The notes: a model not told the origin generated them from the letters alone. Counted from the stretch's first letter, positions 6,274 through 42,105 are shown. The stretch: DNA of 42,105 nt from Rotaria sp. (GCA_905330235.1 CAJNUA010000634.1:1-42105); one strand, 5' to 3'. Program-made: numbers and translations.

Positions 6274-6365
6274 GGGTGTGGGACGTGGGGGTGAGTGTGT
6301 GTATGTTTTTGTGTCAGTCATCAGTCTACCCGCATCCCACATTCGCAGCACACGTACAGCCACAC
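6274..6365. repeat. GT-arm / AC-arm foldback element (family copy, diverged)
   Basis: gggtgtgggacgtgggggtgagtgtgtgtatg … cccgcatcccacattcgcagcacacgtacagccacac. Confidence 0.4.
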
Positions 6366-6850
6366 TTGAGACGCACTTCATATCTAGTATATGTTGGTGT
6401 CGAAATAAGACGCTAGACGCATAAATCGTCTTGGAAGACGTGTGACATTTTTTAGAGCGTTATTAGTGTAATACATATGCCTGTTCTGTCATATATAGAT
6501 GAATAAAGAATCCATTTTCCTTTTAATAATCACTCTTTGCGTTTCTGTAGTTCTATCGAACAAATACTATGTATCTGAACTACATAACATAAAATGGAAC
6601 ACTACTGAGAGAAAAAAAACCGGCTAATATAAAGGAAGATTTATGTTACATGTTATTTTACATAGAGTGACACAATTCGATTTTATCTTTGTTCGATAGT
6701 AACTCATTCAATTCGTTAGTGTCGACAAAATTCGCGAACACATTTTTATTGAAAACAATATTCTTTGTATAGTGTTGAATGTTTCACGTTTGTGTAAACA
6801 TTTTCATAGTCAACTTATTTATTTTTATTGATAAGATATATATGAAGAAA

Positions 6851-7801
6851 CTAATATTTACAATTGAAATATCGCAAGTGTTGTACGCGATTCAATAATT
6901 CAAAATCTGCGTATATTATAAAACAATTATTAACATGAAAATATATCAGTAGAAGAGAAAATTCCATCGATATTTTTGATTGATTTGGATTACAACGGTA
7001 TGTTACAGTATTTATAATGCCGCAAAGTGATTGTTGTTGACATGATGCATAACATGATGTACAATCTTTGTTCGTATTAGCTATATAATTTCGACATCCA
7101 TTCATGTTACAACACCGACATTGACAACGTGTATTTACATTACTTTGACTTATACATGTACCATTAGTTTGACCCAGATAAAATGAAGATGGACAGAGTG
7201 AAGGATATTTCTTGTGACATGATTCTGTACAAGCCGATGACGAACATGAAAATGCTGTTGTGAAACCCACATCGATATTTGGTGAGCAGTTTGAACCCGA
7301 TTGACAGCCCATGCATGAACAAGTGTTACGGGTTAAAGAACGAATACTTGCTATACTGCTTCTCATTGTTGATGTTGCTGTAATAGGACCAGTACACGTA
7401 TCATTTGTTTGTCCATTTTGATTTCATACACATCGATTCGGATATTGTGCAGCACATGAAATACTACAGGAACCTGGTTGACATAAATAAGCAGCACTAT
7501 AACCAACAAAAGCGGGAGTACAGGCAGTTGAACCTGTATTGCAACAATCACAACGACAATTGCACAAAAAGTTAGGAGACGATGAACATTGTGCTGAAAA
7601 ATGACCGCTTCGATTATTTATTTGACATTGAGAATATCAAATGAAACAGTGTCGAGGACATGTCCTTGTATCACATGATTGCAGGATAACATTACCAAGG
7701 ACTACTGGACTGCAAAAACGACCAATACAACAAGAACATAAACAAGCATTTTGTTGAGCTTGAGAATATCTTATTAACAAGAATATAATCAGTATATACA
7801 T
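6851..7801 (-). CDS. Candidate secreted cysteine-rich protein gene: one 317-codon frame from ATG 7799-7801 to stop 6851-6853, interrupted only by TGA at 7637-7639 and 7424-7426
   Basis: N-terminus MYILIIFLLIRYSQAQQ is signal-peptide-like. It is followed by Cys-rich text (…CLCSCCIGRFC…CNCRCDCC…CSCMGCQSGSNC…CQCRCCNMNGC…). AATAAA lies ~25 nt downstream of the stop. Each TGA sits in a possible 54-nt GT…AG phase-0 intron (7594-7647 and 7378-7431). Confidence 0.35.
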
Positions 7802-9056: not shown

Positions 9057-9118
9057 GTGTGGGTGTGAGTGTTGGTCTTGTCTTCTCTTTGTGCACACCC
9101 ACACCCAAATCCACATCC
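9057..9118. repeat. GT-arm / AC-arm foldback element (family copy), in the MVP intron region
   Basis: gtgtgggtgtgagtgttgg – 18-nt loop – cacacccacacccaaatccacatcc. Confidence 0.55.
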
Positions 9119-9368: not shown

Positions 9369-9453
9369 CTAAAGGCATTCAAAAACTACAAAACAATTCC
9401 CATAATTCGTAAAAGTAAATTGATTGGATATAGCTGAACATGTGGCTGTTTAC

Positions 9454-9553
9454 CTGATCCATTAGATAACCCTTCATCTCTAGCTTGTCGCTGTTTTCCA
9501 TTATCATCAAAATCTAAAAGAGCTTCCAATTTTAATACTGAATTAGTCGGAAT
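9454..9553 (-). CDS. MVP: Candidate MVP exon 2 (IPTNSVLKLEALLDFDDNGKQRQARDEGLSNGSG), followed by donor GTAAAC
   Basis: The minus-strand translation aligns with MVP '…[34 protein letters not shown]'. Acceptor …gtag|ATTCCG, donor G|GTAAAC. Boundaries are approximate. Confidence 0.4.
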
Positions 9554-9626
9554 CTACTTAACAAAGTGACAGACTAAAATAATGCAGACAGTTACTAGGA
9601 AAAATTAACTTTCATAAGGAAATTCA

Positions 9627-9980
9627 AAGCGCTTCTCTTAAAGTTTCACCAGGATATAATGGAAATGGTTCTTTATAATCTTTATTCAATCGGATTTCTA
9701 TATCACCATGTAACAATTTTACTTGGCCATTTTCATCCAATTGAACTTGACCAATGTCGTTTTTCACAACGGGATTTTCGACAACACAATAGTGTCTCGG
9801 TGGTAAGATGATCATTTTTTCTGGCCCTAGAGTAATTGTCTCATTGTCTTGTTTAAAAAATGTTTTCGGACCAATTTCCAACCGTGTTACCCCTGTATTT
9901 TGATCTAATACGTGAATATAATAAAACGATAGGATGTGATAGACGGGGCCGGTTTGAGATGGTAAACTTTCCGAAGACAT
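9627..9980 (-). CDS. MVP: Major vault protein (MVP), N-terminal coding exon (start ATG at 9978-9980; ORF-track start at 10013 is a TTG)
   Basis: The translation MSSESLPSQTGPVYHILSFYYIHVLDQNTGVTRLEIGPKTFFKQDNETITLGPEKMIILPPRHYCVVENPVVKNDIGQVQLDENGQVKLLHGDIEIRLNKDYKEPFPLYPGETLREAL matches the vertebrate MVP N-terminus (…YHYIHVLDQN…VGPKTY…DNE…PPRHYC…NP…G…LEIRL…PFPLYPGE.L…). The 3' boundary is unresolved because TGA follows REAL and there is no GT donor. Confidence 0.75.
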
Positions 9981-10523
9981 ATTAATGCCAAATTTTCGTT
10001 CTAGAATAAACAAACAAAAGAAAAGAAAATCGGATGTAACTGTCAGGGAAACTCGTTTTTTCAGAAGGATGACTTGTTTCTTTCAACTATGCTCGTCAAC
10101 ACATTGCACAACTGTTATGAAACAACTCTGCTGAATCAAAACAGTCATGCACGTAATTGCAAGAGCTTTTGTAATATTCTATTCTGTGCTGTCGCCATAC
10201 GTCATAGAATACGATAGAAAAGAATTTTTCTTTTTCTTGTCGACGTAAAACAGAGATTGTTTTGAAAGTGAATAAGTCGAAATACATGCTGCTACTTTCT
10301 GTTAGATTGAATGGTCACACTGTTTTGCCTCTTGAGCCGTTTCATACACCTCGTTCGTACTGCCAAAGACCTTCTCATACTATAACTACAAGACAAAATA
10401 TTGGTTCTAAGGAAATTAGAAATATTTGACAATGTGTGAAACTCGAATGTCACTACATCTATTTGTCTTTGCCCTTTATTGCAAAGAATTGAAATACAAA
10501 ATCCGTCTTATTCCTTCTCTATA

Positions 10524-10570
10524 GGGCGTGAGTGGTTTTCCAATGCATTCATACCCAAATCCATACCCAT
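10524..10570. repeat. GT-arm / AC-arm foldback element (short or partial copy)
   Basis: gggcgtgagtgg … catacccaaatccatacccat. Confidence 0.35.
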
Positions 10571-11219: not shown

Positions 11220-11296
11220 GTGTGAGTGTGGGTGCGGACATAAAAAGAGAAAGATAACAGCCACAACCACACGCAACATCCCACCCACATCCACTC
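11220..11296. repeat. GT-arm / AC-arm foldback element (family copy)
   Basis: gtgtgagtgtgggtgcgg … ccacaaccacacgcaacatcccacccacatccactc. Confidence 0.55.
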
Positions 11297-12050
11297 TGCC
11301 TTTATTTTCAAATCATGCTCGTTATTTCTGCAATACATGTAAGACAAAACGATTATTGATTGTTAAATACAGTTATCCTTGTGAATTTCTCTTTCATGAA
11401 TTCTAGTTTCTCAAAGAAACAATTATGTCGAAAGATTTTTTTACATAGTAGAGTCTCAATGAATTGAATTCTCTTTTACATAATCGGCTTAAATACTTAG
11501 CCATTAGTCTTTCTAAAGATGATAAGATTCTTTTTATTTACAGGTATCTTCTTTGTACAAATCTGTATCTCGTGAAAATAATATTCGACATATTTGTGTC
11601 TTGGAAGGACTAAGGTTAATGAAGAGTCAGGGTTTAGACATAAATCGATATTATTTTATGTAGCATAATATAACTTTGTGCCCTTTCGTTGTCAATATGA
11701 AGACGAGTAGTTTAAATAAATTCGATAATCTGTCTTTATTTTAGAGTAATCTGAAGTATTATTCACGTAATAAAAGTATTTTCATACTGACTGGAAGAAC
11801 CATTTTAAAGTTTTTTGAGTTAATTAAAAATCGATTGATGAGTCTAGAATTTTATTTCGTAAATGAGATATTCGATGTTGATTATTTACAAATGTTCTAA
11901 GTTTATTAGAAAGTGTTATTAATTTTAACATAGAATTTCGTTTATCCGTAGAAAGGCTCGATAGCTTGAATCATTGATTAATAGTCGAATGTAGACTAAT
12001 GTCCATTTAAAAAAGAAGAGCTGTGACCATTTTCTGAATAACTTTTCATT

Positions 12051-12531
12051 GGAATGACATAGAGACCTGCGATTTTGACCGTTGGAAAGAGAAGATGAAG
12101 ACACATCGAATCGTATATTATAGCATTTTCCGGCAATTTTTATTGAGTGTTTTTAATCGAGATTTTGACAAACCGTGCATCGCGCTCAATCACCACAGGG
12201 AATTTTCGATTTTTAGGAGTGCATCAGAACCGCCAATCGAAGATCTACAAAACTGCGCAAGGCCTAAATTTTTAACTTGTAACGTTCAGGAGTTAAAGGT
12301 ATTTTTACTGTGGGCTTCTACATGATTTTTCGAGAAAATTAGACGAAATCTCCACTTTTTCGCTAAATTTTCATGAAAATTTATAGTACCAATCGAGCCC
12401 AAACATACACATTTAAAAAAAAATTCAATTGAAAGTTTCGAAACACTTGTCAGTAAAATCTGTAATATATGATTCGATGTGTCTTCATCTAACTTTCTAA
12501 CGGTGAAAACCGCAGTTCTCTACCCCATTCC
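12051..12531. mobile_element. MITE-like / foldback element, ~480 bp, with ~70-bp terminal inverted repeats (~85-90% identical)
   Basis: Left arm ggaatgacatagagacctgcgattttgaccgttggaaagagaagatgaagacacatcgaatcgtatatta. Reverse complement of the right arm ggaatggggtagagaactgcggttttcaccgttagaaagttagatgaagacacatcgaatcatatatta. The interior is more GC-rich than the flanks. Confidence 0.55.
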
Positions 12532-15500
12532 TATGAAATGTTATTCGAAAAATGATCAGGACTCTTCTTTTTTCAAATGGGCATTAGTATTTCGTCAAGA
12601 GCCGGTCGATGCTGGTCCAATGCCTTTTATTCGTAGAGATGCATCAATCGACTTCTGCTCATATTTCTCAATGATTTCTTTCACAGGAGTAGACTTATAC
12701 GATGATAATGATGGTGTGTTAAAATTTATTGTTGTATGTTTATGTAAGCAACGCTTTGACAAAGATCGAAGCCTGTAATAAACGATATTCAATGGAAAAT
12801 GAGAGAAAAACATTTATACACAGAAAGATGATCATAGTGAAAATACTTCTGAAAATATTCGATGCTGTCATTAAAACTTATTTGAATGCAATCGTTATAT
12901 TGATACGAATCCTATTTTAGCATCTTTCGATAACAAAACAATATTTTCTAGAAATAAATTTGTCGGACAATTTTTTTTGCTTGACAAATAATAATATAGA
13001 TTTAGTATAAGATATTGATCGAATAAGATTATATTTTTTGTACTTCTGTCAAGGAAAGAAAATTATAATTTTATTTTGATAAAAGTTTGTTTAATGAATA
13101 TTGTTTGAATTAGCTGCTTAATTGGTGATATTAATTTTTTTCGAATTTTTTCACGTTTAATATGAACTTCACATGAATGATACCAATCAGAAAACCTTAC
13201 TATCTCAACGTTTTGGAAATTTCATATATTCAATTAATAAAATGAGACTACTTAGACATTACAATGATATTTTTCTTGAAAAATTAACAGGACTAACGGC
13301 ATTAATGACTACTATGAGAGTTTTGAACGTTGATGATGTTGCTCAATATTAACCGTTAGGTATAAAATTCATAGTGCGGCGAATAACAGATGATCATTCG
13401 ATTCAAAAAACCTCCGATGGCTACAAATGATCGTTTTCAAACCATTTGAATATTGATGAACATTATTCAACTTTTCAATATTGTGATCATAAACGTTTGA
13501 TATTTCTTTATAATAAGTTGCTGCATTTATTGCCAATCCCATTTTGTAAAAGAAGTATAACATTAATAATGATGATGTTTCTAATTCCACAAATTTGTAT
13601 GTATGTATTCAATGTTAGATCAATGTCATAGTGAATGTTCATGCCAGCTGTTCCAACCTTTCTTTGACATGTCTGGTCATTGTTTTCTTTATCCTTGCTT
13701 CTATGATATCCTTCTATGTTGTTGACTACGTAGTTCATGATCAACTATGATTCAATCAACATATCGTTTCTTCCACATTATCACCTTGTTTTCTCATTTA
13801 GATTGTTATGATTTTAGAGGTTCAAAAGTTTGCAAGAGAAAAAATGAAGGCAAGTAGATGATAATAATAGACAAAGCACAACACTCAAACTTGGTTGATT
13901 CATTTCAATAAAATTTACACTGATGAGAAGAAGAAGAGAAATCAAAAGAATATATTATCATATATTCTGATAACATAATGCGCACTACATATAATTAGTG
14001 ACATCATTGATATACGATTTATAGGTAAAAGATAATAGATAGAGTAGAGGAAAGACAAGAACAGACTCTTGTATGGTGGTATGCATATATAGTATTCTGA
14101 TCATTATGACTGGTTATGAAGGTGTTACCTAATCATTTTATTCAATGTTTTCAGTTTCACTCATGTGCTCATTTTTGTTTACTGTTTGTACAGCATATAT
14201 TAATACGTGTTCAAGTTTTATTTGATATTAATTATGTACCTGTGTTTTTGATGAATTACTCATTGGTTTGATCTATAATTGTAATAAATAAAGAAAAAAA
14301 TTGTAGACGTATAGATTCAGGCATTGTGTATCTTTATAGTTGATATATCTTGACTTTATGTTTTCTCTGTTATTGGGTCGCTCTAACTTCGTTTTTCTTA
14401 TATAAATGAGTGTTTTGTTTCATAAGGAATTGATTTCTAATATACAGAAAGAAAATAGAAGGTAATCATATTCGAATCAGCTAATTAGTAAAATTTTTTA
14501 AAATCTACTTCTCACATAAAGTAGAAAATGAAAAATAAAAGTGTTTCTTTAATTTAGAACTTTCCTGAGACTTCTTAATGTGTAAGCTGATTGTGAAACT
14601 ATTAACAAATCAATAGAAACCACTAATATCCACGGAGTAATTTTGTAGCCCTACTCTATCTTATCTACCTTACTACAATCGACACAAGAGAAAAGATTTT
14701 GAGTAATATTATGAGCTAGATTAAAGTTTATATGCCTTACTATTTAAATTCATCGGAAAAAGTACTCAATAAAAAAAAGATAAAGATACATACTATAAAC
14801 AAGAATGAAACCAAAAAATATGTTACTTATAACTTCTATTGTATTTTCTTATCGAATTCACACAATTGATAAGTCTCTAATTAAAATATTAATACATTGA
14901 AAATCATCGTTTTGTATTATTAATAGTTATTTATTAGCAAGAGCATTTTAGTCTGCTCTTGGTGCTAGATGAACAAGATGAGATGAAATCATTTTGATAT
15001 AACACTAAGAACAAGATTAGACATAGAACAAACATCTTCATGCTCATTAAACGATATAGAACTTATAACTTAATTTTTTTATGTGAGGAAAAATTCTGAA
15101 TAAGAAGTGTAAATATTATTCTTCTATAATTATGTTGTATGTTTTAACTGTATCACATTCTCCAGTATAGCGTTCGACTTTGCCTTCGGAAGTTCATTCT
15201 TGAATTTTGACTCTCATCGACCTAAAAAAAGGTCTGATCCTAACCTGTAGACATTTCTAATAGCAACAAAACTGAGAAAAGATTTTCAGATAAAATGATA
15301 CAATATATCTTGACGTGGTACATTCCGTTTTTGTTCTCCGTGAGACTACGCTAGAATGTATCGAAACAACGTGAACACATACTTGTTAGTTTTGAATAGT
15401 CATATTCTTTCTATTACGAACGTGTAGAAGATCTCCGATGACTTTAAGTAAAACACTGTTGTTATTACATGTTTCTATTATATCGTGTTCGTATTGTATC

Positions 15501-16804: not shown

Positions 16805-16990
16805 GGTGGTCCGACTGGGGGGTGGAGGAGGTGGTGTCGGGGGTGTAACACCCACCCCTCCAATCGTCGAAATTGCCGTTTTTTTTCAAGCAAAATCCAA
16901 AGATTTTCTTGTGTTCTGTTTGAAAAAATAATAGTACATACCCCAAATATTCTCAACACTTCACTTCCCCTCCTCCCCCTCCCAATGTTG
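16805..16990. repeat. G-rich / C-rich inverted pair inside the putative DGK intron. A local hairpin (16808-16856) has a long-range C-rich partner at 16962-16982.
   Basis: ggggggtggaggaggtggtgtcgggggtgtaacacccacccctcc, then ~100 nt later cacttcccctcctccccctccc (reverse complement gggagggggaggagggg). Confidence 0.5.
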
Positions 16991-18828: not shown

Positions 18829-19951
18829 TGACTCTGCACATGTGCATGTTTATTCACTTATATTATATTAATCATTTTTCTTTAAGTTAATCTGCCATTT
18901 TTCTTCTACCATTTTATGATTCAAAAATTAAAAACTTCTTGGGCTCTAAACGAAGTCCATTATTGATTTACAATTATGAAAACTATTGATTTTTTCTTGA
19001 AATGGAATGTTTGTTAAACTAGAAATCGTACTGTCCAAATTGGAATGATCTGAACTATACGAAAAGCTATTTCCATCGAAAGCTAATGATTTCGAAAAAG
19101 TGTATATATATCTGAAGAGAAAGTGCACCTCAAAATCCACACCCGACCGTGTATGAAACTCAAAGGTTGCTATTCTAAGCAAAGTTGAAATATATAATTA
19201 GTCATCTATAAATGAGAGTGAGTAGAATAGATTTGTTAACATATGCGTTCTTGATAGGAACTTGCATCGCCTTTCACTTCACCGTGGAGTACCGACGATT
19301 AATCGAGTTGACCCTCTTCATTGTGAGCGATAGAACTTTGCCATATGACAAACTTAACAAATATTTTGGTCGAAGTTTTTGTTTTATAGATAAGTCTTCA
19401 AGAATTGGATAAAGTATCTATTTTTCTCTGAAAACATTCTTGACCGATCTATCTATTCTCGTCGTAAGAACAAATATTTATAACTGTTTTCCAAACTCTC
19501 ATGCACTGCTGCCAACCAATAGGTGTATCTCCATATTCTTTTCCGCAAGGAACATAAGAGAAAACAAAATTTCTGAACGTTGCTATTCGAAATGACAGTT
19601 TACTCATTTTTAGTGCAACATTTCCAACGAACTCGATCTTAGTGTGATAGTTATAGTGTATCAGCACACGTATGATAACTTTTTATGATAATTCATCGAT
19701 ATTTCTCGACCAACTTCTAGATTTCTACACCAATAACTCTTACCCTTAGCTAATGGTCTTATACTAAATCCCGCCTCATTTATATCTGCCACCACTCAAA
19801 TAAAGCTCCTTAAATAAATAAAAATGTATTGTTACGTCGAAGAAAATATAAAATTTTTATTTCTAAATGAGAACAGTGCGAATGTAAATTTGTTACAGGT
19901 AAAACGTGTTTAAAACAAAATGACATCAAATTGTTTTGTTTATGAATCACT

Positions 19952-20427
19952 TCAATTTTTTGAAACGTATTCAGTAAATGGCGCTTCTATTTGTAAGTGT
20001 CCATCGTGTGTTAAATGAGTTTGCAAATGATCAGTTTGTGTGCCCGGTGGAAGGGTAATCGATCTGTAAAAATAAGTTTTTTCTAAATGTCGATTATCCT
20101 TTGATATGTGTTCACCTTGTATAATCAGATCATTATTTTTGACTGACACTTTAATGTGTTCAGGACGATAATTTTTCATAGGTATAGACATTTGTATTTT
20201 TTTTTTATTTTCTTCTGCATCAACAACTTTTGGTGCAAAAGCTGATGTATGAAAATGATGATAATTAAATGATTGATCACGATATTGACCATATGGAAGT
20301 AAATGATGGCTATGACTTGCTTGTGATGATGACTGAAGATAACGTTGTTCATGTTCACGATTAAGTAGTGGTATATCCACAATCAACAGATTGTTTGGTG
20401 TTACATAGGATACTAAGTGATCTGCAT
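19952..20427 (-). CDS. p40-like small heat-shock protein, exon 2 (second alpha-crystallin domain); stop at 19952-19954, AATAAA about 19860
   Basis: A 58-nt intron (20428-20485, GTGAGA…tttag) joins HAG|DADHLVSYVTPNNLL… in frame. Second alpha-crystallin domain: HIKVSVKNNDLIIQGEHISKDNRHLEKTYFYRSITLPPGTQTDHLQTHLTHDGHLQIEAP. Confidence 0.75.
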
Positions 20428-20485
20428 CTAAATATTAAAATTAAAAATATAAATTAGAAATTTTGGACAATTTTACACATCTCAC

Positions 20486-20876
20486 CAGCATGTTCATAAA
20501 CAGTTTCAGGTAAATCGTATATTTTTTGTTCTTTAGTATTCTCACTATTACTATGATGATGCTTCTTTTTCGCTTCTATAATTAAAAGACGACCTTCAAT
20601 TGTTGTTTTTATAGTCTCTGGATCAAAATCCGCAATGTCCAGTTTTACACGAAATCTTTCTCCATACGTTGGTATTTGTAATGCTGGCGCAACCTTATCC
20701 TTGTGTTCTTTTTTCAGTTTTGGTTGATTAATCCAACGAAATGATATTGGTGCACTTGAATTAATATTTGTCCATGGATCAAATAATTCAAAATCATTTC
20801 CGAAATTATCAGAGTCAAATTTCTTATCATTTGAACGACGACGATAGCGATTCACTGGTAATGATGACATTGTCAT
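20486..20876 (-). CDS. Small heat-shock protein with two alpha-crystallin domains (trematode p40 egg-antigen-like), exon 1
   Basis: First alpha-crystallin domain: FRVKLDIADFDPETIKTTIEGRLLIIEAKKK. The exon ends …VYEHAG with donor G|GTGAGA. Confidence 0.75.
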
Positions 20877-22035
20877 TTAACAAAATCTAGAATATGAATA
20901 GAACTTCGTCAAACGTCATGATCTAGAGCTGAAAATTTTACCACCGTCCCCTTAGTTCAGCCAGAACATATGCTACAAATTTCAAGTGACTTGAATCTTT
21001 TCAGTGTGGAAAAGTTTTTGAGGTGGATTAAATTCCAAATTGAATATCAGTTTTAAAAACTATGTTTCTCACACTTTTAAACGCTACCAAATTCTCTTTT
21101 GCGAAAGCTGCTCAGAGTTGTTGATTTCTCATGATAATTTGGGATTAATAACCTCTACCTCGTACCTCCCACACCTAAAGGCGGGCATTGGTTCCAGTGA
21201 CCCATATAAAAGAACCTACGCAAGATGATCACTGCAAAAGTCGATAAGAAAAAGTCTTACGACTTGTATATTAGATTTTTCATTATTGGATGCAAAAGTA
21301 TGCCCTGGCTCGAGATCATAGGGTCCATCAGCTAGAGGACCAAAGAATAGAAACATTTCACTTGACTTCGATTTACTGGAGCCTGCATATTTTGAAACCA
21401 AAAACTTTGATTGTATAGAAATAAAAAACAACAACGACATTCCATTAACTGAGATAGATTTGATGGGAAATGAGTTTCGATGTTGACATGTTCGATTTGT
21501 TAATTGAGGATCTTTTCCAATTGAGTTTGAGGGAAAAACGGAAATGTAATATTATCGATCGGATATTTTTATTTGTTTAAACAAACCGTATTTACTTCAT
21601 CAGTAGTGTTGAGTTTAGTGAACGAAAGAAGAGTCAGCTAGGATGAGGAAAACTGATGCACTAAGGAAAATGGTCGTTTTCAAGAGATGCTGGTTTTCAT
21701 TTTTACATACGCTTTTTAACATCTTTTACTGTTGCAACGTTCGAAGCTTCTAGACACTTTCAATAGTTGTGCGTGCTTCAAGTAATCAGCTATGTAAATA
21801 AACTGAACAGAGAAAAGAAAGTTGCTTTTTACTCTTGCCAGTTCTTAGCTGTTCTATGACGAAGAATGGTAGATACGAAAAAAAAATATTCTCAATTCTA
21901 TTTCAAACAGAAGCACGTGTCTGTGCAAGTGTCCTTGTTATTTTTACACAAACTACGAGCATCGCTTACTGATAGATGACGATGTGTCATACGGTGTATG
22001 AAAAAGTAAACACTAAACATATCGGATCAGCGTAC

Positions 22036-22080
22036 GGGTGTGGGTTGTTCTTCGTCAATCACCCACATCCACACCCACAC
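22036..22080. repeat. GT-arm / AC-arm foldback element (family copy)
   Basis: gggtgtgggttgtt–cttcgtcaat–cacccacatccacacccacac. Confidence 0.6.
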
Positions 22081-22797
22081 AATTGATTTTGTGTGAGTTT
22101 TTAAACGAGAAAATCAATGCTCAGATCATTCATGAGCATGTTCTAAGAAAAAGTGAAATGTTTGATCAAACGAACACTGATTAATATCTTCTGTGGGGCA
22201 TCAAATTTAATCATAAAATACAATTTTGTGGATTTCACAATTGAAATGTTTTCTTCACAACGAAATGAAGCAAACATTATGGTTGTATTTCTAATGTTGA
22301 TTGATCTTCTGCAAGTTTGGTCGTTAGTTATTTTAATCATCTAACAAAATGAATATATTATTATGCATTAATCACTCTTAGCAATTTGCAAAATTAATCT
22401 CACAAGAGAAATAAACGATGATAAATTTTTTACATTGAATTCTTGAATGAAATTTGAAAAAAAGACTTTTGTTGATGTGCCAAATCCTTCGATAATAATA
22501 AATGATGAAAAATAATCACATGGTAATAAAATCGTTCAGAATGTTTACTATGATTTGGTGAAGCATTTTTTCAAATAAGATCTCAGAGTAAAATCGCATT
22601 AAATAAAAAAAAATGTTGACGAAATCGCAAAAAGATAACTGTTAATAAAAAAATGAATTTTATTGACATGCCATTGTGTTATCTTTTAAAATAAAATTAT
22701 TTTTCGATCAGAATAAGAACTATCTTAACAAAAGTAACTAGATTGTTCATTCATAAAATTAACATTAGATAAATTTGAAAAGGCATGTGTGAATATT

Positions 22798-22869
22798 TGG
22801 GTGTGGGTGTGGGGTTTGGATGAGTTTAAATCTTCACCTCAACGACATCCGTATCCACACCCACATCCC
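22798..22869. repeat. GT-arm / AC-arm foldback element (family copy)
   Basis: gggtgtgggtgtggggtttgg … acatccgtatccacacccacatccc. Confidence 0.6.
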
Positions 22870-24106
22870 TTTTTGACTCATTGATTGGAAGATAAATCTT
22901 ATTAATACTTTGATAATTTATGGGACATTATAATTACCTGAGATTTCTTTGCAAATAAGACAGTTTTTGGGACATGAAACATTTGTAAAAATATATCCCT
23001 GGAAAATGTTCAGATGTTTTAAACTATTGTGTGATGAAATAGATTTAATAATGTTGAGGTATTGTCTCTTACTGGCTATTTGTATTAGTCGAATGACTGC
23101 AGAGGTTTTGTTCATCATATATTAATATGGTAGGAGAAACCTTGTGAATATCGCAGAAGAGACTATGTTGCCTACTTCTCAATCATCCCTTCAACATGCA
23201 GTGTCTAGAGAGAACGAATCACATAATGAATTATTCAATTGAATCAAATAATTTACATGTCACAATAAAAACGCATAAGCAAACTCAAAAGTTCTATTGA
23301 AAATGATTGTAAGAATGATATTCTATTCAATTTTTTACACTAAGCAACTCCAATAAAATCAAACTTGTTATGCTCAGCACTCTTCTACCACCTATTGCTT
23401 GAGGGGCTACCGGGATTTTGTGGAAATCATTTATATTTTCGAAGAAAATAGTAAGTGTAAGTATTAAGTTCAATTCTTTTACGACTTCTCCTTCCCATTA
23501 CAGACACATAGCAACGTAAGCCTCCATTAGAAACAGGCCACCATTACAGACCTGAGCAACTGCGCACAAAAGGCTTCAGATTTATTTAGCAATAAAAAAA
23601 CTACTTGAATAGTATGAAGAACATATAAGGTCTAAATAATCCGCTGATGTCATTATTGAATTAGATAGTAGTTACACTTATTTATATTTTCTAAGTCAAG
23701 TTTATCGTTTTCGAAAGAATTCAATACATATTATGCTAAAAATAAACAATTTATCATGCTTTCAAAACTACTTTGACCACTATACTCATGCTAAACAAAT
23801 GAGTTATTACGTTCTAACGAGTTATACCATGCAGCATTCAAGTCTGATTTCAAAATATTTAATTGAATATGAAAAATGTGTATTTAAAAGGACGAAATAA
23901 CAAAGTTTGACATGGTACAAAAAAAATTTTGACACAGACTCTAACAACCATTATTCATGAATCATATACTCAGTCGATCGTTTTGCACGATGATGTACAG
24001 GACGCTTGTTAACGTAAAATATTTTGCATGTTCTGTTCTGCATTGCAAGACATTGCATCAGATTTTGGAAATATACGAAAAGTTAAAAAATAATAAAAGT
24101 GTAAGA

Positions 24107-24178
24107 TAGCAGCGAGTAGTTTCGATCTACCGCCCTCTGAGTTATGAGCCCAGCACGCTTCCACTGCGCCACGCTGCT
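24107..24178 (-). tRNA. tRNA-iMet: Initiator tRNA-Met (anticodon CAT)
   Basis: Minus-strand sequence AGCAGCGTGGCGCAGTGGAAGCGTGCTGGGCTCATAACTCAGAGGGCGGTAGATCGAAACTACTCGCTGCTA is near-identical to vertebrate tRNAi-Met. It has A1:U72, the GATCGAAAC T-loop with A54/A60, CAT in the anticodon loop, a 7-bp acceptor stem and an A discriminator. Confidence 0.85.
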
Positions 24179-24189
24179 TGTATTTCTAT

Positions 24190-24241
24190 GGGTGTGGGTA
24201 TGGGTGTGGTTTTCTCTTTGTACACATCCACACGCATACAT
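24190..24241. repeat. GT-arm / AC-arm foldback element, 12 nt upstream of the 5' end of initiator tRNA-Met
   Basis: gggtgtgggtatgggtgtgg–ttttctctttgta–cacatccacacgcatacat. Confidence 0.6.
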
Positions 24242-24509
24242 TTCTGTTGCAAACCTCCATTTTTTGTGCCGATTAGAAAAGAAACTTCTCCTTAAACTAT
24301 AGCATACATATACAACGATGGCTGTACAAAAGTATCAACGTCAAATTTACTCTTAGGTCTACCTGTTCGCACGAATTCATTTTGTTAATAGCTCTCTGTA
24401 TGGATGTAGCACATTGAATGAAATAATTAGTTGTTTCATTCAGTGACTTTTGTAATGTATTGCGCGAGACCAGAAGATATGTGAAACGGTACAAGTAAAA
24501 AAGGAAAAG

Positions 24510-24581
24510 TAGCAGCAAGTAGCTTTGATCTACCCCAATCTGAGTTATGAGTTCAGCACGTTTCCACTGCCTCACGCTGCT
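24510..24581 (-). tRNA. Degenerate second copy of initiator tRNA-Met (possible tRNA pseudogene), 400 bp from the first
   Basis: AGCAGCGTGAGGCAGTGGAAACGTGCTGAACTCATAACTCAGATTGGGGTAGATCAAAGCTACTTGCTGCTA. It has the same architecture but carries an A:C mismatch in the anticodon stem, D-arm changes, a T-loop ATCAAAG and a G:U at the acceptor end. Confidence 0.5.
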
Positions 24582-24910
24582 TCTGTTCAACTTTCAGGTA
24601 AAAAAATCGTCATGATGCCAGCCTTTTTTTCAAAATTATTGCATTCATATAAATATCTTATCTAATCAAAACTATTCTGGAAATCTCTTACTTTTTTCTG
24701 TCTTTATATGTGAAGTCAATAATCTAGTATAAGATTGCATGTTTATTAGAAAAAAAATATGTGTTCATTTCCAATATTTAGTTTAATTAATCTCTTTTTT
24801 TAAATATCTATCTATAGTATTGGCTTTAATGAAGCAAAGAGAGGCATGATTAAATAAATTTTAGAGTACTGAACCAAACTAAGCTATAATCACAAAAGGT
24901 TGTAAGAGAT

Positions 24911-24950
24911 GAGTTGATCTGGGGTGGGTGTCGGTGGTGACTTTTTCTAC
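24911..24950. repeat. GT-arm / AC-arm foldback element (short copy)
   Basis: ggggtgggtgtcggtggtg–actttttctac–actcacaccc. Confidence 0.45.
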
Positions 24951-25070
24951 ACTCACACCCTTGGAGTCGTTTACGGTAGTTGTTGTCTTATGCAGATAGT
25001 GATGACCATCAAGTGACGCCTACATTACATTCGTTTTTTAAAGAAGAAAAGTTCGTAACAAACTGCATAG

Positions 25071-26490
25071 TTATCGATCAAAATAAGTGAGAAAAAACAA
25101 AATGGCCCAAATAAATCCAAAAAGAGTTCCTTCTGCTTGAAACATGGACGAGTTGATTACACTAGTTTCGAAACATTGAAAGAGTGTCACCTGAATATCT
25201 ACGATTGTACGATAAAGTTCTTTCGACGAATCTAGCGGTAAAAATGTATCTCCATTAGAGAGCAAAATCACGCTGATAGTGTTTTTCTCATTGACCAGCA
25301 TCAAATGAGTCATGCCTTGTAATCCACCACCATGTCAGACATATCGATGACCATTGCTCAACGTTTGCCAATGCCAACCAAGTCCAAACTTTAGTGATTC
25401 ACATAGTCCTGTAGAAGTATTGCTTGAATCTTCAATATAGTAAGGGATGAGACCACCGCCAACTATTGTTCGCATTTCGGCAATGGATCGAGGAGTAAGT
25501 AACGAAGATTCATTATTGATAAACATACGAAGAAATACAGATAGAGAACGAGATGGCATGCGAAAGAGGCCTGAAGGATAAGTATTGAGGCTGAAGAATG
25601 GAATTTACAGCCCTGTTGGAAGATTTCCCTAGACAGATGATTAATTATTAAATCAAATCAATGCTACGTAGTAAAACTATTGACGCGCTTACAGGAATCT
25701 GTGTGATATTCAGTTATGGCATTATTTGGTTCCATGCTTGAAGAAAGGATTCATTGAATGCATTCGTATAATGCTTAACAAAATCGTTTCTGTCTTCAAA
25801 ATCGGAGAGACGAAAATCTGTCTTGTGAATATCGATGCCCAACGGTTTCAGAATATTTTCTTTGACATGTTGATCACAAGGCGTTTTTGTTATTCGTTCG
25901 ACGACTAATGCAGCCAGAGATGAACCTTCATTTGAATAGAATGTTACACTGCCTGGTGGTTTTGGCAACCAATTCGACGTATCCGGATTCAGATATTGGA
26001 AACACATATCGGCCAAACTCGCTTGAGTGAATGCAATATCATCCGGTTGAAAGTAAGTGTCCAACGAATAGTTATTGACAGCGACTGAAGCTGAGTGTGA
26101 AAGTAATTTACGCAGAGTGATCGAATGAGAAGGTTACTGCGGATGAAAGATTCTTTAGTGAGGTTCCGACAAATATTGGTTGGTGTCTGTGTTGAGATCA
26201 ACAAGTTCTTTCTCGACAAGTTGCATGACAGCAACTCCAATAAATGTCTTTGAGATAGAGGCGAGAATAAAAATCGACTTATCGACATCCATAGACACTG
26301 CTGGTGAAAGAGACTGGTAACCAAAAGCTTGTTCGTAGAGTATATCACTAGCATTGACTACAATAATTACGGCACCTGGAATATGAACTTTATTGAAAGC
26401 CTTCTCGATAAATTGTCGATTTGGACAACTTGAACCATTGGTGGCAGCAATAATAAAACTAAGAACATGCAGACGCAACAATAAACACAT
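25071..26490 (-). pseudogene. LACTB / class-C beta-lactamase-fold serine hydrolase homolog, interrupted by 3 in-frame TAA and 1 TGA and one frame change (candidate pseudogene, or recoded)
   Basis: Ordered motifs on the minus strand: FILASISKTF (S-x-x-K), …YLSEPH[TAA]RIFHPQ[TAA]PSHSITLRKLLSHSAS…, YSNEG (Y-x-N), KFGLGWHWQ…GHRYV[TGA]HGGGLQG (H-x-G box), …VNEKNTISVILLSNGD. Stops at 26155-57, 26134-36, 25714-16 (TAA) and 25335-37 (TGA). Confidence 0.55.
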
Positions 26491-26790
26491 AATCTTTCGA
26501 TTCTATTTGACAAACAATAATCGTTTTATTTCTAGTGTAGGATTAAACTGTCATTAAATAGAGCATCTAAATTATGAATAGAAGAATAAATGGCAATAAA
26601 ATCATGTTGTTATCTTCGTCTTTCTTGTCTTTTTTATATTCTGAGGATAAAAGAAGTATTTTCAATATTTGAGAATAAAAGTATACTTTCTTTGATTCTC
26701 GATGATTAAATGTCACTCAGAATAGACAGTATGTGTTCACTGTTCTTTTATGGCTCAGTGACTTATCGCGTGAGTCGATGAAATACGACG

Positions 26791-26973
26791 AGGTGTGGGT
26801 GTCGACGTCGGTGTGATTGTGGGTCTTCTTTTAAGCCACATTCACACCTATACCCTTTGATTAAACAATGTGGGTGTGAATGTGGATGTGGGTACGGGTG
26901 TGGGATGGGGCGTGTGGGTGTGGGTGCATGTGGGTGTTGTTTAAGCGGTTATCAACACCCACACCCATACCCT
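26791..26973. repeat. Two adjacent GT-arm / AC-arm foldback elements; the second has an expanded ~70-nt GGGTGT-type arm with many GGG runs
   Basis: ggtgtgggtgtcgacgtcggtgtgattgtgggtc…gccacattcacacctataccc. Then tgtgggtgtgaatgtggatgtgggtacgggtgtgggatggggcgtgtgggtgtgggtgcatgtgggtgttg … caacacccacacccataccc. Confidence 0.6.
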
Positions 26974-28140
26974 TTTGAACCGGAGATTTGACACAACTTG
27001 TAGTATTTTTTTGAAAAAGTTTTTCTTTTATTGAGGGAGGAGGCGGATTGTGGATAGTGAGAGAATGACTTATTGAGCGTTATAGTGATGACAATTGCGA
27101 TCTATTGGTGGTACATAAAATGGCGGCGGAGGCATTGAGGCTCTGAGGCCTCAGTCTCATCTGGTTTTCATCAATGAAAGCTCAGTCTCACCTAATATTA
27201 AACTTAATATTTCATACGAATACATACTTTTCAAGGCTTTTATGCACTTGTGGTAGGCCATCCTAAGCAGGAAGGTAACTCGGTCAATAGTATAGAACTA
27301 TCGCATTTCCTAGCGGATTTCATTCTGGAAATCAGGATGCAAACGACTGTTTTCAAACAAAATATTGTCCAGAACTACTTTAAAAAATTATTGATTCGTT
27401 AGTATTTAACAGCTGTATGAAATCAGTTTAGTTTCACCATCTCTGGACATTTTCTACAGAGTTCTTTAATATGATTATTGCAAGCGAGGTCATATTTGGC
27501 AGCAGAAATATCGAACAACTTTTTTGAGTTGAATACAAATATGGGCGTCTTCCTATAAAAATTCGGTACCTACACGAGGGTCTATCGATCTGGAAAACCT
27601 GTAGACTGAGGCTTTTTGAAAAGTTTCGTTTTTTGTAATCATGGAGCGTCTTTGTTTACGATAAACGTCGCCAGAGTGACCGTTAGTTATGGCAAGAGTA
27701 TTCAGTCATTTCCTTGGTGCCGTTTTCTTCCGATGAAGCTGTAAGTAATAGTAGAGTTTCTAGAAGTTTGAAAAAACAATTTGCTTCACGATAAAATTCT
27801 ATTCACTTTGCTACGATTTTCCGGATTTTTCTCAAACCCTGACTTCTTGCATTAAAATTGGTTGAATATAAGAAGACGTCTTGTGCATTTTAGACCGCAG
27901 AAAATTTACCTTGTTATGACCTACATCTTATTAAGATGTAGTCATAAGGAATGTCTATCTGTATCGACAGGTTTATATATCTGTTTTAATTACACTCAGT
28001 CATTGAAAACTCACAATTAGTATAATTCTATCACAATTAGTAATTAACCAGTCAAGATTAAAATCTTTAAAAAATTTCAAGTAACCGAAACCGAGATAAA
28101 AACCTAATAAGTTTTGTGTTCTTTATTTTGAACTAAGTTT

Positions 28141-28206
28141 TGTGTGGGTGGGGATGTCAATCTTCTAGTCCGCTCACGCCCACACCCACTCACTTTCACA
28201 CCCACT
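28141..28206. repeat. GT-arm / AC-arm foldback element (family copy)
   Basis: tgtgtgggtggggatg … ctcacgcccacacccactcactttcacacccac. Confidence 0.55.
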
Positions 28207-28760
28207 AGAGCCCATCGGGTCCAAAAATTTTGCAGTCGGTCATATCTGATTTTGATATTCTCAATAAAAATTTTATAAACCTCACCCCGTAATGAAAGAC
28301 CCTGGTTCTTCTATTATGTCCAAGTATACAAAATTTTCAAAGTGATCTTCAATTGTATTCCATTTTTTTTCCATAATTTTTAATTAAAAAAGCTTTTCAG
28401 AAAATCAAAACAATTTTATGGATTTCAGATTAGATTTTTATGGTTTTAAAAGTTCAGGAAAACATTGATCACAGTCTTTTAAGATTTTCAGCTCGAAACC
28501 CTGGACATCAGGCATCTTTTAGCATAAAGGCACTTATTAAATTTCGAATGTTCGAAAAATTAATTAATATGGGACGTCTTCTATTATATCCACCGCATTG
28601 TTCCTCGAAGCAAAGTTTTCAATCATGATGGTTTTTATTTTGTGGGAAAAGGTTTAATTGTAATCAGATAGTTATACCGAAGATATCGGATGCTTTCTTT
28701 CGTTTTTTCCATTCGGTGACTTGCGATAAACTGCACATTTCTCATATCATTAGGAATCAC

Positions 28761-28820
28761 CGGGTCCAACATTTTTTCGAACTTGGACCCGGATCCGAGC
28801 GGGTTCGGAATCAATCCGAC
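28761..28820. other. Perfect 10-bp-stem hairpin ccgggtccaa–(13 nt)–ttggacccgg, followed by a second small hairpin (ccgagcgggttcgg). The motif cgggtccaa also occurs at 28215-28225.
   Basis: accgggtccaacattttttcgaacttggacccggatccgagcgggttcggaatc. Confidence 0.4.
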
Positions 28821-30927
28821 GGACTCTAACACCCACACTCTTAACATAGAAGATGTATTAGCATGTACATTGTTATTTGAATTAACTGCATGCAATAGAT
28901 TCGATGTTTCAGAAAAAAAACAAATCCTGGAGATGTTTCTGTGGATGTGAATAAGAGATGCATTTGTTGATCGTTAAACTTTTAATTTTTTCCGATGAGA
29001 ATTCTGGAAAGAGAAGTGCCATGTTTCTTTGTTTGGATGTATGCAGTCTCATAAATTATAATTATATCTTTTAATTGTGTATTTCAATATATTCATAGTT
29101 TTTCTTAGGAAGATATGTAACATAACATAAAACAAAATACTTAATAATGCTTTCATTATGTAATGGTTTCAAGGACGAAAAAATTACTATTTATCAAACG
29201 TCTTCAGAGAATACTAGACGCAAGATATTCTATCATGTCGCAGCGTACAGAATTTTTGAAGATGATTATGTGTTGCGGTCAATAAGTTTTCATAATTCCT
29301 AAAATAAGTTGCGTAAACCAAAGTTATTCTGTAGACCTAACAGGTAATCCATAAGGTTTTAGAAATTAGAAATAATGCTGATGATAATGTCTTAAGATGT
29401 TATGCTCAAAATCCTGAAAACGATTCATATTTTAATATAAATATTCTCATCAAGATTCCAATTTTTTGAGAAACGAATCAATCGCAGAAGGCCTTATATT
29501 GGATCAAAAGCATAATTTCCCAAAGAGGCATCCTATCATATCGAACTGTATTGATATGGAAGGGTAGTTTATTGTGGGGAGGCGTTTTCTTTCAGTCTAA
29601 AATAAAGCATACACTTTCAATAATTCAAGAGTTAAACCAGATTATTCTGATTGTTTTCATTGATTTTTTCTTTAAAAATTCGATCGAAAACGTGAAACTG
29701 CGGCTGGTAGGACTGAGTCTCACCTAACTCTACCCTAGTGATGCGACTACCATTTAGATAGTAAAATTTTGTTGCAATATCAAACTTTTCATCTTTTGAT
29801 TCATTATATGATTCAATTGTGACAACATTTTAGATTGTATAATCTTTGCTGAAAAAATAATTTATGCTGTTATTCATTTCTTTGAGTAATAATATAAAAA
29901 AATAAGCGCTATTTTTATGATTTTTGCTCTACTTCTTCTGTTGATAATATCTATTATCATATCCATGTTTGTTGTGATATGGACGCTGTTGATTCTGGCG
30001 AGGAGATGAAGTATAACTATTAGATGCTGAATTATTATTTCTATTATGTGGTGTCATTGATTGTTGTTGTTGGCGATAACAGTTACTATGATCTATAACT
30101 TCTTCGCTTCTGGAATTGCTATAGTTCGTAGACGATGACGGAATAATTCTGCATTGGTAACTGTTGGGATTGCCCTTCACCTTGTTGAAATCTTCACTCC
30201 TATAAAAAAAAAGACGTTAAATTAATATACATACGCTACATATCATATAACGATGACTCTTAAAAATATTCGATTAGGTTTATTTTCTAGTTTATTTCAG
30301 TTATTGCAAATGCTCATAAGAATTTCATTTCTAACAAAAGTTTTGAAGAAGAAAAATGATTTGCTGGTTTCCTAGAGGTTGGAATTCTGAAAACCTAAAA
30401 CAAAGTTTTCTGGCTGTTAAAGTTGGCAAATAGAATATTATTTAGGTTACCTTCAATAATAGAGCAAACAGCAGTGGGCAAAATTAAAGGTCTTCGAGTT
30501 CTCAACAACATTTTTTGACCGAGATATATCAATTCTAGAAAAATCACAAAAATCGTTTTTTGTTTTTTTTCGAATGAAGCCACCATTTTTGTGCCTGCGA
30601 TAGAATTGATATACGTTGATCAAAAAGTGTCGTGGGAAACTCGAAAATATTTAATTTCGTACACAATTGTCTGTTCCATAATTCAAAACATTTCAATAGA
30701 ATTCTATTTACCTATCCCATGAGCTTAAAAACTTTGTTTTAAGTTTTTCAGAAATCGTATCTTTAAGAAACTTAGCAATTGTTTTCATTTTGGAAAACTC
30801 TTGTTAGAATGAAATTCTCTATTCAAATTACTCTTAGGTTTCTTATTAGAGTTTGCCATAGCTGTGAAAAATTGAAAATAAAGTTGATTGAATAACTGTG
30901 TGACCTATTGTACTAATGCAATGTGAC

Positions 30928-40800: not shown

Positions 40801-42105
40801 GATTGTTCAGCATCCAATCAATAGTAAAAAGAAATGGAGTTGATCGTCAATGACATCTTTAATTCATACTCATATTTTAATTCCTACATATTCTCTCAAT
40901 TCTGAATTTATATATAAACTATAATTTAATATTATACTACTAGCCAAAACCATTCTCTTCTGGAATCCAAGACTCCATGAGAGTGAAAGATCGAATAATT
41001 CGTCTGCAGACAGTCCATAGAGAATGTTGGTCAACGGTAGCATCAACACTAAAATCGCCCAAGCTAGAACGAACTTATAATAATTGAGATCTACGATCAC
41101 TGCGATTCTCGTAACTGAAGAACAGATAGACTGTTTTCGAGGCGTTCAATCTTTATTTTGTTGTCCTGTATTAAGACTGTTTTAGATATAGATCTAATCA
41201 GTTTTCATCAAGTAATTGATAGTTGAGTCATTTTGTCTTAAAATATGGATATGAAAAAAAAAATGTCGTTCAGCGGTCAATGGTCCAGCGAGACTTTCAT
41301 GAATATATCTCAAATTCTCAGAAGGCGTTGTACAACGGTTGGTATCCACACTCTTTACTGAATTATGTGCTGTTTATAAGATTATATAAGTAATTGTCAA
41401 TCCCATTGCATGAAACTGTAGCCTAATATATGGTCTTTTATTGTTTCAAAGATGATTTCAATATGCTTAAATAATGGAGACTTCGGATCTTAGACAAGTT
41501 CATGATAATCATCGTTTGTAAGATGCTAGAGCTTCTGAAACTTTTATACACAATTGTCAACCATGGTCCAATACCTCCTAAGAATTTCAGATGGACCTAG
41601 CAAACTATCACTACAGGGTTGACTACTCTATATGATATTCTATGAATTCTTCTTTTTACAGATTCATGCTTTTAGTAAAAATAATTCAGTTCGTCAGTAG
41701 CTTTATGAACATCAATTAAATTAATATCAGCAATAATTATAATCCAGGACTGCAAAATAAAAGATTGAACGGCTTCAAAAGCCTATCTATTCTTGGATTA
41801 TAAGATTCGTAGTGGCTGTATATGTTACTCATTATAAAAATTTGTTTTAATTTGAGCGAATTTGCTGCCACTGTGTAAATGCGATGTCTTAAATTCTCCT
41901 TACATTTACGATGATACATTTAACAAATAATTTTACAGTTGTCACCTTGATAAAACCTCGTGTCATCTCATTTGCGAACATAAAAATCAAAATCCAAAAT
42001 CTGTTAAATTCAATTCGAGTTGTTTTTTAAATTTAAATTTTCGATTTTCAAATTTCAAAAGAATTACTGACAACAATTTTAATACAGCTTAAACTTTCAG
42101 TTATA

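Follow-up and report, generated by a model that had tools for sequence, protein, structure and literature searches.

The stretch of DNA analysed here (42,105 nucleotides of Rotaria sp., GCA_905330235.1 CAJNUA010000634.1:1-42105; hereafter the window) has a G + C content of about 32% and carries ordinary animal genes, namely a diacylglycerol-kinase-like gene, two small heat-shock protein (sHSP) genes and a large sacsin/NOV-like gene. It also holds a number of short elements, each formed by a GGGTGT-rich tract, a short spacer and an ACACCC-rich tract, and these are the subject of this work. By protein homology, the best named relatives of the sHSP open reading frame (ORF) and of a 1021-aa sacsin-like ORF are Rotaria species, and the sacsin region is 82% identical at the nucleotide level to a Rotaria sordida contig across 7.2 kb; on these coding sequences the host is therefore placed among the bdelloid rotifers, near Rotaria. 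Bdelloid telomeres are built of (TGTGGG)n: in Adineta vaga each chromosome-scale scaffold has it at its ends (PMC8494291), and across bdelloids it serves as a telomere marker (PMC7943196, PMC11258130). The initial annotation of the window had described the tracts as a foldback family and remarked on a telomere-like character that would be unexpected in an animal with TTAGGG telomeres. The likeness is real, GGGTGT being TGTGGG read in another phase, but the premise is wrong because the host is a bdelloid.

A word-based scan for a G-strand telomere-like block followed by a C-strand block within 60 nt finds pairs at 6274, 9057, 11220, 22036, 22798, 24190 (C side degenerate), 26791, 26869 and 28141. 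Thus, where at least 11 foldback copies had been proposed, about 9 of the 13 tracts listed prove to be genuine interstitial telomeric tracts in head-to-head arrangement, with a G-strand tract, a spacer of 11–41 nt and a C-strand tract. The pattern GTGGGT-N(5-35)-CCACA has 13 matches at 8 window loci (0.07 expected from 100 dinucleotide shuffles), and the C-to-G order is matched once, in the gap between two tandem copies (26836-26875). Genes flank every copy on both sides and the window runs more than 13 kb past the outermost copies, so that the position is internal, as for other interstitial telomeric tracts. No copy overlaps a Pfam-supported ORF in the window.

The largest copy (26869-26979, plus orientation) has the longest G tract (26869-26937), a spacer at 26938-26954, a C tract at 26955-26973 and a flank TTTGAA at 26974-26979. 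It stands in tandem with a second copy (26791-26860, plus; G tract 26791-26824, spacer CTTCTTTTAAG 26825-26835, C tract 26836-26855, flank TTTGA 26856-26860), and the supposed double copy at 26791-26973 is thus correctly two elements. Four further copies in plus orientation lie close by, at 22036-22080 (G 22036-22045, spacer 22046-22059, C 22060-22080), at 22798-22876 (G 22798-22813, spacer 22814-22854, C 22855-22869, flank TTTTTGA 22870-22876), at 24190-24241 (G 24190-24209, spacer TTTTCTCTTTGTA 24210-24222, C 24223-24241) and at 28141-28206 (G 28141-28152, spacer 28153-28178, C 28179-28206). The copy at 9057-9118 is also in plus orientation; its G tract (9057-9067) degenerates up to 9079 and is followed by GTCTTCTCTTTG (9080-9091) and the C tract (9094-9118). 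In the copy at 11220-11296, assigned to the minus strand, the spacer (11235-11260, with AAAAAGAGAAAGA) has the opposite orientation between the G tract (11220-11234) and the C tract (11261-11296). The tract at 6274-6365 is degenerate (G about 6274-6305, C about 6330-6365) and has no assigned orientation. Two candidates are weak: that at 24918-24960 (listed from 24911; plus) has a G-like block at 24918-24931, a spacer at 24932-24950 and a short C block at 24951-24960, and in the decayed one at 10524-10570, again with no assigned orientation, the C block alone is detected. We excluded 4351-4439, which has no fold signal relative to shuffles, and 16805-16990, which likewise has no such signal and does not belong to the telomere-repeat family. 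The latter sits in a probable intron of the diacylglycerol-kinase-like gene; about 150 nt separate its G-rich arm (GGGGGGTGGAGGAGG) from its C-rich arm (CCTCCTCCCCCTCCC), and it includes a small GGGGGTGTAACACCCACCCC palindrome.

Seven elements fall in the 6.2 kb between 22036 and 28206. Loci fetched through protein homology are unbiased for the element. As four gene-dense, syntenic relative loci totalling 84 kb have none, another bdelloid locus (L002) has two and a locus of Rotaria sp. Silwood1 (L127) has at least five, the density in the window is a local enrichment. Synteny between the window and R. sordida spans from about 29.7 to 40.5 kb and then ends; every element falls in the part that is not syntenic, the copy at 28141 being nearest to the limit at about 29.7 kb. 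This relative, the closest compared, shares about 82% identity with the window in coding DNA, and its synteny does not reach across the element-rich part.

In the Rotaria sp. Silwood1 genome, the tracts sit at rearrangement junctions. Head-to-head tracts at 6564-7003 and 15056-15398 lie on the two sides of a conserved two-gene block of L127 (7442-14727), and homology of L127 to four other genomes (the window, R. sordida, and loci L124 and L128) stops at the block edges. A segment found downstream of the gene in L128 is upstream and inverted in L127, where it ends 14 nt from a C tract of 250 nt. Arms in L127 reach 215–250 nt and are unequal (215/22 and 40/250), and solo tracts occur, one of which runs into an assembly gap. 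Long telomere-like tracts are also found at L127 17192-17366 (assembly gap) and at the ends of seven other contigs (L013, L018, L024, L027, L042, L085 and L098). The elements seem to break short-read assemblies, and their true number is probably under-counted.

The same architecture is found in a metagenome scan with the pattern GGGTGTGGGTG-N(8-38)-CACCCACACCC, which matches at least 120 loci. About half of the matches listed were excluded, being either bacterial hairpins of high GC content or members of an unrelated AT-rich family (L054, L059, L064, L077, L089 and L106); about 45 of those listed are low-GC rotifer-like contigs, in which the arms run into longer telomere-like arrays that include the variant TGAGGG. 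In the window and 57 low-GC loci among the matches listed, there are 67 G-to-C pairs and no C-to-G pair. In these loci the G strand always lies 5′ of the C strand, and the same order holds in loci not picked by the pattern. About nine of the 67 pairs were found independently of it. The two tracts do not abut directly; the spacers elsewhere measure 7–41 nt. Arm length varies from 10 to about 180 nt in the metagenome loci and the window, and from 10 to about 300 nt overall, and the two arms of an element are often unequal. Several contigs have elements clustered at a spacing of 0.25–1.9 kb. The alleles L050 and L117 were compared with each other and are locally identical, which is uninformative.

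The two arms of an element are independent in sequence. Each arm in the window is closer to canonical (TGTGGG)n than to its own partner, which identifies the repeat as that of the host. When each G arm in the window was ranked against all C arms, the true partner had a mean rank of 6.9 of 11, so that partner-specific pairing is absent. Covariation of the arms, in the form of non-canonical variants shared by partners, was considered and was rejected by this comparison of partners with non-partners. Long arms agree only close to the spacer (L052 and L018), and inverted complementarity does not extend into the flanks. Relative to the spacer core, described below, there is no arm-length asymmetry (medians 26 and 25 nt).

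The spacer is partly conserved. A core, GTCTTCTCTTTA, is found at 10 or more of 12 positions in 16 of 59 elements and in 2.4% of random 70-nt segments of the same loci; as the motif was derived from the same data, the enrichment is partly circular. In Rotaria-like genomes the core has the form CTTCTTTTAAG. The carriers in the window are the copies at 9057 (11 of 12 positions), 24190 (10 of 12) and 26791 (10 of 12), all in plus orientation, and the first two align at 81% over 48 nt, with the spacer included. In almost every case the pyrimidine core abuts the G tract's 3′ end at a fixed phase, GGGT(GT)|CTTCTC, and the junction of spacer and C tract is of variable phase after a variable length of 8–35 nt. 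Two loci from different samples (L013 and L070) have about 28 nt of spacer in common (...TTTAACCGAC), and longer spacers of the window and L127 have in common ...TTTAAGC. Because the longer spacers share further sequence past the core, the spacers look like nested copies of one template, read outward from the junction with the telomere repeat. Outside the arms, ATCTTGA is flush with the arm at 15 of 122 outer ends (12%), compared with 5 of 931 background GGG sites (0.5%); it is mostly at one end only and is missing from most copies. A flank variant, CCC-TTT(TT)GA, is common to the window copies at 22798, 26791 and 26869.

Conserved sequence of this kind brings in the main rival explanation, in which the elements are tiny non-autonomous foldback-type DNA transposons, with telomere-hexamer terminal inverted repeats (outer ATCTTGA-GGGTG...) and the spacer as internal sequence; arm length would shift by slippage or unequal exchange, as in Drosophila foldback (FB) elements. 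The initial annotation had offered a related reading, a foldback family resembling miniature inverted-repeat transposable elements (MITEs). Recurrence of the spacer core across unrelated loci and samples, including the long spacer stretch common to L013 and L070, agrees with a transposon, as do the ATCTTGA ends, the flank common to three window copies, the alignment of the copies at 9057 and 24190 through the spacer, and the clustering seen in several contigs. Like FB elements and MITEs, the elements have inverted, variable-length arms of short tandem repeats, a small centre and many dispersed copies capable of forming hairpins. However, there is no target-site duplication signal: the longest word shared by the two flanks averages 3.51 nt compared with 3.46 nt for mismatched flanks, a comparison whose power is limited by the fuzzy arm ends. 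The arms are very heterogeneous rather than uniform, often very unequal, and solo tracts occur. Partner arms are no more alike than non-partners, they consist of the host telomere repeat including its TGAGGG variant, and the phase is fixed on only one side of the spacer. Neither an autonomous partner nor a nearby transposase was found at the loci examined; the 65 ORFs flanking elements, on short contigs, contain no reverse transcriptase or transposase domain. We therefore retain the transposon as a rival but regard it as unlikely.

The arrangement of the arms allows a hairpin, and folding was compared with dinucleotide shuffles of each copy and scanned in the window by a sliding DNA fold of 90 nt. 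In that scan, the two hairpins of greatest stability in the entire window belong to the telomere-repeat family. Stable hairpins had been predicted for all copies; the prediction is good for four, at 22798 (z = −3.86), 24190 (−3.93), 26791 (−3.30) and 26869 (−2.80), and modest (z from −2.0 to −1.2) for those at 22036 (−1.97), 11220 (−1.84), 9057 and 28141 (−1.22). Five of the listed copies fold no better than shuffles, namely 4351, 6274 (0.03, no notable hairpin), 10524 (+0.79), 16805 and 24911 (−0.96 for 24918-24960). Only one canonical G-quadruplex motif (at least four runs of at least three G, loops of at most 7 nt) is present in the entire window, at 26890-26910 in the G tract of the copy at 26869, so that the quadruplex potential earlier ascribed to the G-rich arms in general is limited to this copy. 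The i-motif potential ascribed to the C-rich arms is not borne out, the window containing no canonical run on the C side.

These results bear on the possibility that the elements are selected structural or RNA elements, such as precursors of small hairpin RNAs, terminator- or insulator-like hairpins, or G-quadruplex and i-motif regulators. The four strong folds would fit such a role, several metagenome copies lie within tens of nucleotides of ORF ends, and a T run follows three of the window copies. Against it, neither compensatory nor partner-specific pairing is observed, five of the listed copies have no fold signal, there is a single quadruplex motif with no i-motif run, and an arm range of 10–300 nt is incompatible with a defined RNA. 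No Rfam family, hammerhead included, is matched at gathering score at the elements in the window or in 20 element-bearing loci. The earlier suggestion of a hairpin RNA precursor is not supported, as partner-specific complementarity and an Rfam match are both lacking. Nor do the elements behave as introns or introner-like elements, a candidate that was rejected: excision at GT..AG joins ORFs no more than in controls (median of 20 codons in both), with at least 40 codons reached in 6% of elements and 14.5% of controls. We consider a selected structure very improbable and propose that the hairpin-forming ability is a by-product of the arrangement.

The explanation we favour, and to which we give roughly even chances, is that the elements are scars where telomerase-extended DNA ends were joined, with RNA-templated filler between them. 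Break ends, or the ends of captured fragments, would be capped by telomerase-added repeats to give neo-telomeres. Joining of two capped ends would leave a G-strand (TGTGGG)n tract facing a C-strand (CCCACA)n tract across a short spacer. The segment between two successive elements has a C tract on its left and a G tract on its right, which is the polarity a linear fragment capped at both ends would have. Joined telomerase-extended ends are suggested because G and C tracts face each other, the arms are independent and unequal, target-site duplications are lacking, solo tracts occur and the tracts are located at junctions. Tract identity, polarity, independence of the arms, the spacer and flank motifs and the link to rearrangement edges in L127 are observed, whereas telomerase as the maker of the tracts, the RNA template of the spacer and the end joining are proposed. 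In A. vaga, telomeric repeats and fragments of Athena retroelements occur at deletion breakpoints, from which a 2026 study inferred transient neo-telomeres (PMC13564844). Among the interpretations of the initial annotation, a recombination-associated element comes closest to such break-and-join junctions.

A core that meets the G tract at one phase, followed by a variable join, fits an origin of the spacer by run-on reverse transcription. Copying would overrun the telomere template into adjacent RNA, so that the core is laid down flush with one G tract, and the extended end would then be ligated, at a position that varies, to the second capped end. The overrun RNA would be either the telomerase RNA or one that ends in (ACACCC)n. 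A precedent for the former exists in vertebrates, where telomeric repeats and retrotranscribed fragments of telomerase RNA are inserted at double-strand breaks as TERC-ITS, interstitial telomeric sequences containing telomerase RNA sequence (Nergadze 2007, PMC2246262; Sola 2021, PMC8537989). In type B of these loci the repeats continue into the RNA next to the template, and a head-to-head arrangement, seen in 3 of 41 loci, was ascribed to telomerase working at the second break end as well (PMC8537989). The rotifer elements resemble TERC-ITS in being short internal tracts of the host telomere repeat abutted by conserved non-telomeric sequence, with a similar tract length (6–205 bp in TERC-ITS). 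They differ in that the head-to-head arrangement is the rule in the rotifer and the exception in vertebrates, in their very high density (seven elements in 6.2 kb), and in the non-telomeric part, which is 8–41 nt compared with 25–98 nt and whose derivation from telomerase RNA we infer. In a tentative extension of the joined-end model, one we think rather unlikely, the spacer core and the outer flank are cDNA of the two sides of the template region in bdelloid telomerase RNA, and the elements are TERC-ITS-like repair products formed at unusually high frequency in an animal whose chromosomes are routinely shattered and rebuilt. The telomerase RNA would then be predicted to contain 5'-...UAAAGAGAAGAC-(ACACCC)n-UCAAGAU...-3'.

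The fixed phase after the G tract, together with the variable spacer length, also resembles 5′ truncation, as in copying by an endonuclease-deficient Penelope-like reverse transcriptase of the Athena/Terminon type. In this variant of the joined-end model, a short RNA ending in (ACACCC)n, a passenger of Athena comparable to a short interspersed element (SINE), would anneal to an exposed G-rich 3′ end and be copied, and snap-back or template jumping would invert the tract. Endonuclease-deficient Penelope-like elements do prime on exposed G-rich telomere or break ends through reverse-complement telomeric repeats, and Penelope-like elements readily self-prime, which yields head-to-head inverted repeats (PMC3846280, PMC6431247, PMC8557442); the Athena fragments at the A. 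vaga breakpoints (PMC13564844) also fit. However, a simple Athena addition yields direct and not inverted tracts, and the spacers are not palindromic, contrary to what snap-back predicts. No reverse transcriptase ORF is among the 65 flanking ORFs, and neither a hammerhead nor any other Rfam family was detected in the window and the 20 loci, although the spacers are in any case too short to contain a hammerhead ribozyme. We hold this route to be quite unlikely.

Returning to telomerase-extended ends that were joined, several observations weigh against this explanation. In two elements (L002 11257 and L127 6701), the pyrimidine core lies beside the C tract instead of the G tract. Arm lengths within an element show a weak correlation (Spearman 0.37), which would not be predicted if telomerase added to each end independently. 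A mobile element with defined ends would likewise be expected to have conserved motifs in its spacer and flanks. Many metagenome copies adjoin ordinary intact metazoan genes, and the gene fragment nearest to the copy at 9057, described below, does not end at the element. A one-step origin at a break is itself a proposal, as is telomerase RNA as the source of the spacer.

The human 2q13 array, (TTAGGG)n-(CCCTAA)n, is a relic of head-to-head telomere fusion. As at 2q13, the rotifer has on one strand a G-strand array and then a C-strand array, both degenerate. The rotifer elements differ in their very small size, their large number, their local clustering and their partly conserved spacer, and they cannot each represent a whole-chromosome fusion. 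A further likeness is to the short subtelomeric interstitial telomeric repeats and Athena/Terminon additions of bdelloids (Gladyshev and Arkhipova 2007, cited in PMC6431247, PMC2861651 and PMC3846280), which share with the elements the host group, the hexamer with its TGAGGG/TCACCC variant and a link to DNA that is rearranged or rich in gene fragments or foreign genes. The telomerase-capped Athena additions have one orientation, whereas the elements here are an inverted pair round a conserved spacer. Interstitial telomeric repeats in bdelloids, relics of head-to-head fusion and break repair templated by telomerase RNA are thus each known singly. In the literature searched, which was incomplete and did not extend to repeat catalogues, we found no description of recurrent head-to-head tracts with a conserved spacer in bdelloids.

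The part of the window not syntenic with R. sordida also holds decayed genes. A pseudogene of the major vault protein (MVP) on the minus strand (9389-10013) comprises the N-terminal 129 aa, with the Vault_2 domain, and a decayed second exon; the other approximately 700 aa of a typical MVP are not in the window, and the last recognisable exon is about 270 nt from its nearest element, the copy at 9057. A beta-lactamase-family gene on the minus strand (25074-26490), which encodes a signal peptide and the motifs SxxK and YSN, has two in-frame TAA stops (26155-26157 and 26134-26136) as well as further frame breaks and is probably decaying. Head-to-head tracts flank it on either side. A similar placement is seen in L102, where a 223-codon ORF without Pfam match (510-1240) nearly fills the gap between two head-to-head tracts. 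Among the element-bearing loci the neighbouring genes are a mixture, in which ordinary animal genes stand beside families that are as a rule non-metazoan (ADP-ribosyl exotoxin-like, LicD, LCIB-type carbonic anhydrase and beta-lactamase).

The tRNA genes had been described as an initiator tRNA pair round which the copies cluster. One of these is real, a tRNA-Met(CAT) on the minus strand (24107-24178) recognised by ARAGORN and by Rfam (RF00005, 57 bits), which lies outside the element. The copy at 24190 starts 11 nt from its 5′ end, confirming the close proximity reported. The second (24510-24582) is a degenerate copy, 85% identical over 73 nt and called by neither program, and accounts for the pseudo-tRNA of the non-syntenic part. 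The duplication extends past the tRNA solely on the 3′ side, by about 60 nt; as it stops at the 5′ end of the tRNA, it is uninformative on the insertion of the copy at 24190. Elsewhere, tRNA-Ser(GGA) genes are found at L013 399-471 and L027 640-713, at 330–490 nt from head-to-head tracts. Together with the window these two loci hint at an association with tRNA genes, but the numbers are too small for it to be convincing.

Other features of the window are unrelated to the telomere repeat. The tandem sHSP pair (window 19914-20894; L001 9509-10456; L002 4989-5963) is the sole block common to three bdelloid loci; its neighbourhood is different in each genome, all flanking DNA differing, and the shared block is only 1 kb. 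An inverted repeat of 136 nt with 83% identity (11995-12129 and 12455-12588, about 330 nt apart) resembles in part L127 17825-17914 of Rotaria sp. Silwood1 and may represent a separate MITE-like family common to Rotaria. Long imperfect inverted repeats are located at 30452-30686 (105-nt arms, 71%), 1487-1631 (60 nt, 78%) and 41051-41863 (212 nt, 68.5%). A very stable non-telomeric hairpin at 28760-28793 (CACCGGGTCCAA...TTGGACCCGG) and overlapping GGATCC palindromes clustered at 1860-1910 are among the most stable local folds in the window.

Bdelloids survive massive chromosome breakage, carry unusually many foreign genes and have few transposable elements. How they stabilise and rejoin broken or foreign DNA ends is the question on which these tracts bear. 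The 2026 study of A. vaga only inferred its transient neo-telomeres at breakpoints (PMC13564844). Whatever their origin, the tracts would inflate the TGTGGG hexamer counts that are used to mark subtelomeric DNA. Should they be a foldback transposon built of telomere repeats, such an element would be out of the ordinary in animals where transposable elements are few. If the elements are scars of joined neo-telomeres, past breaks and captured fragments would be mappable from sequence alone, and one could ask whether telomerase assists repair as often in species that do not desiccate as in those that do. If the spacers are template-derived, they would serve as a search key for the rotifer telomerase RNA, for example TAAAGAGAAGAC-ACCCACACCC(-TCAAGAT), and the elements would be a record of chromosome breaks, of the capture of fragments including foreign genes, and of neo-telomere fusion.

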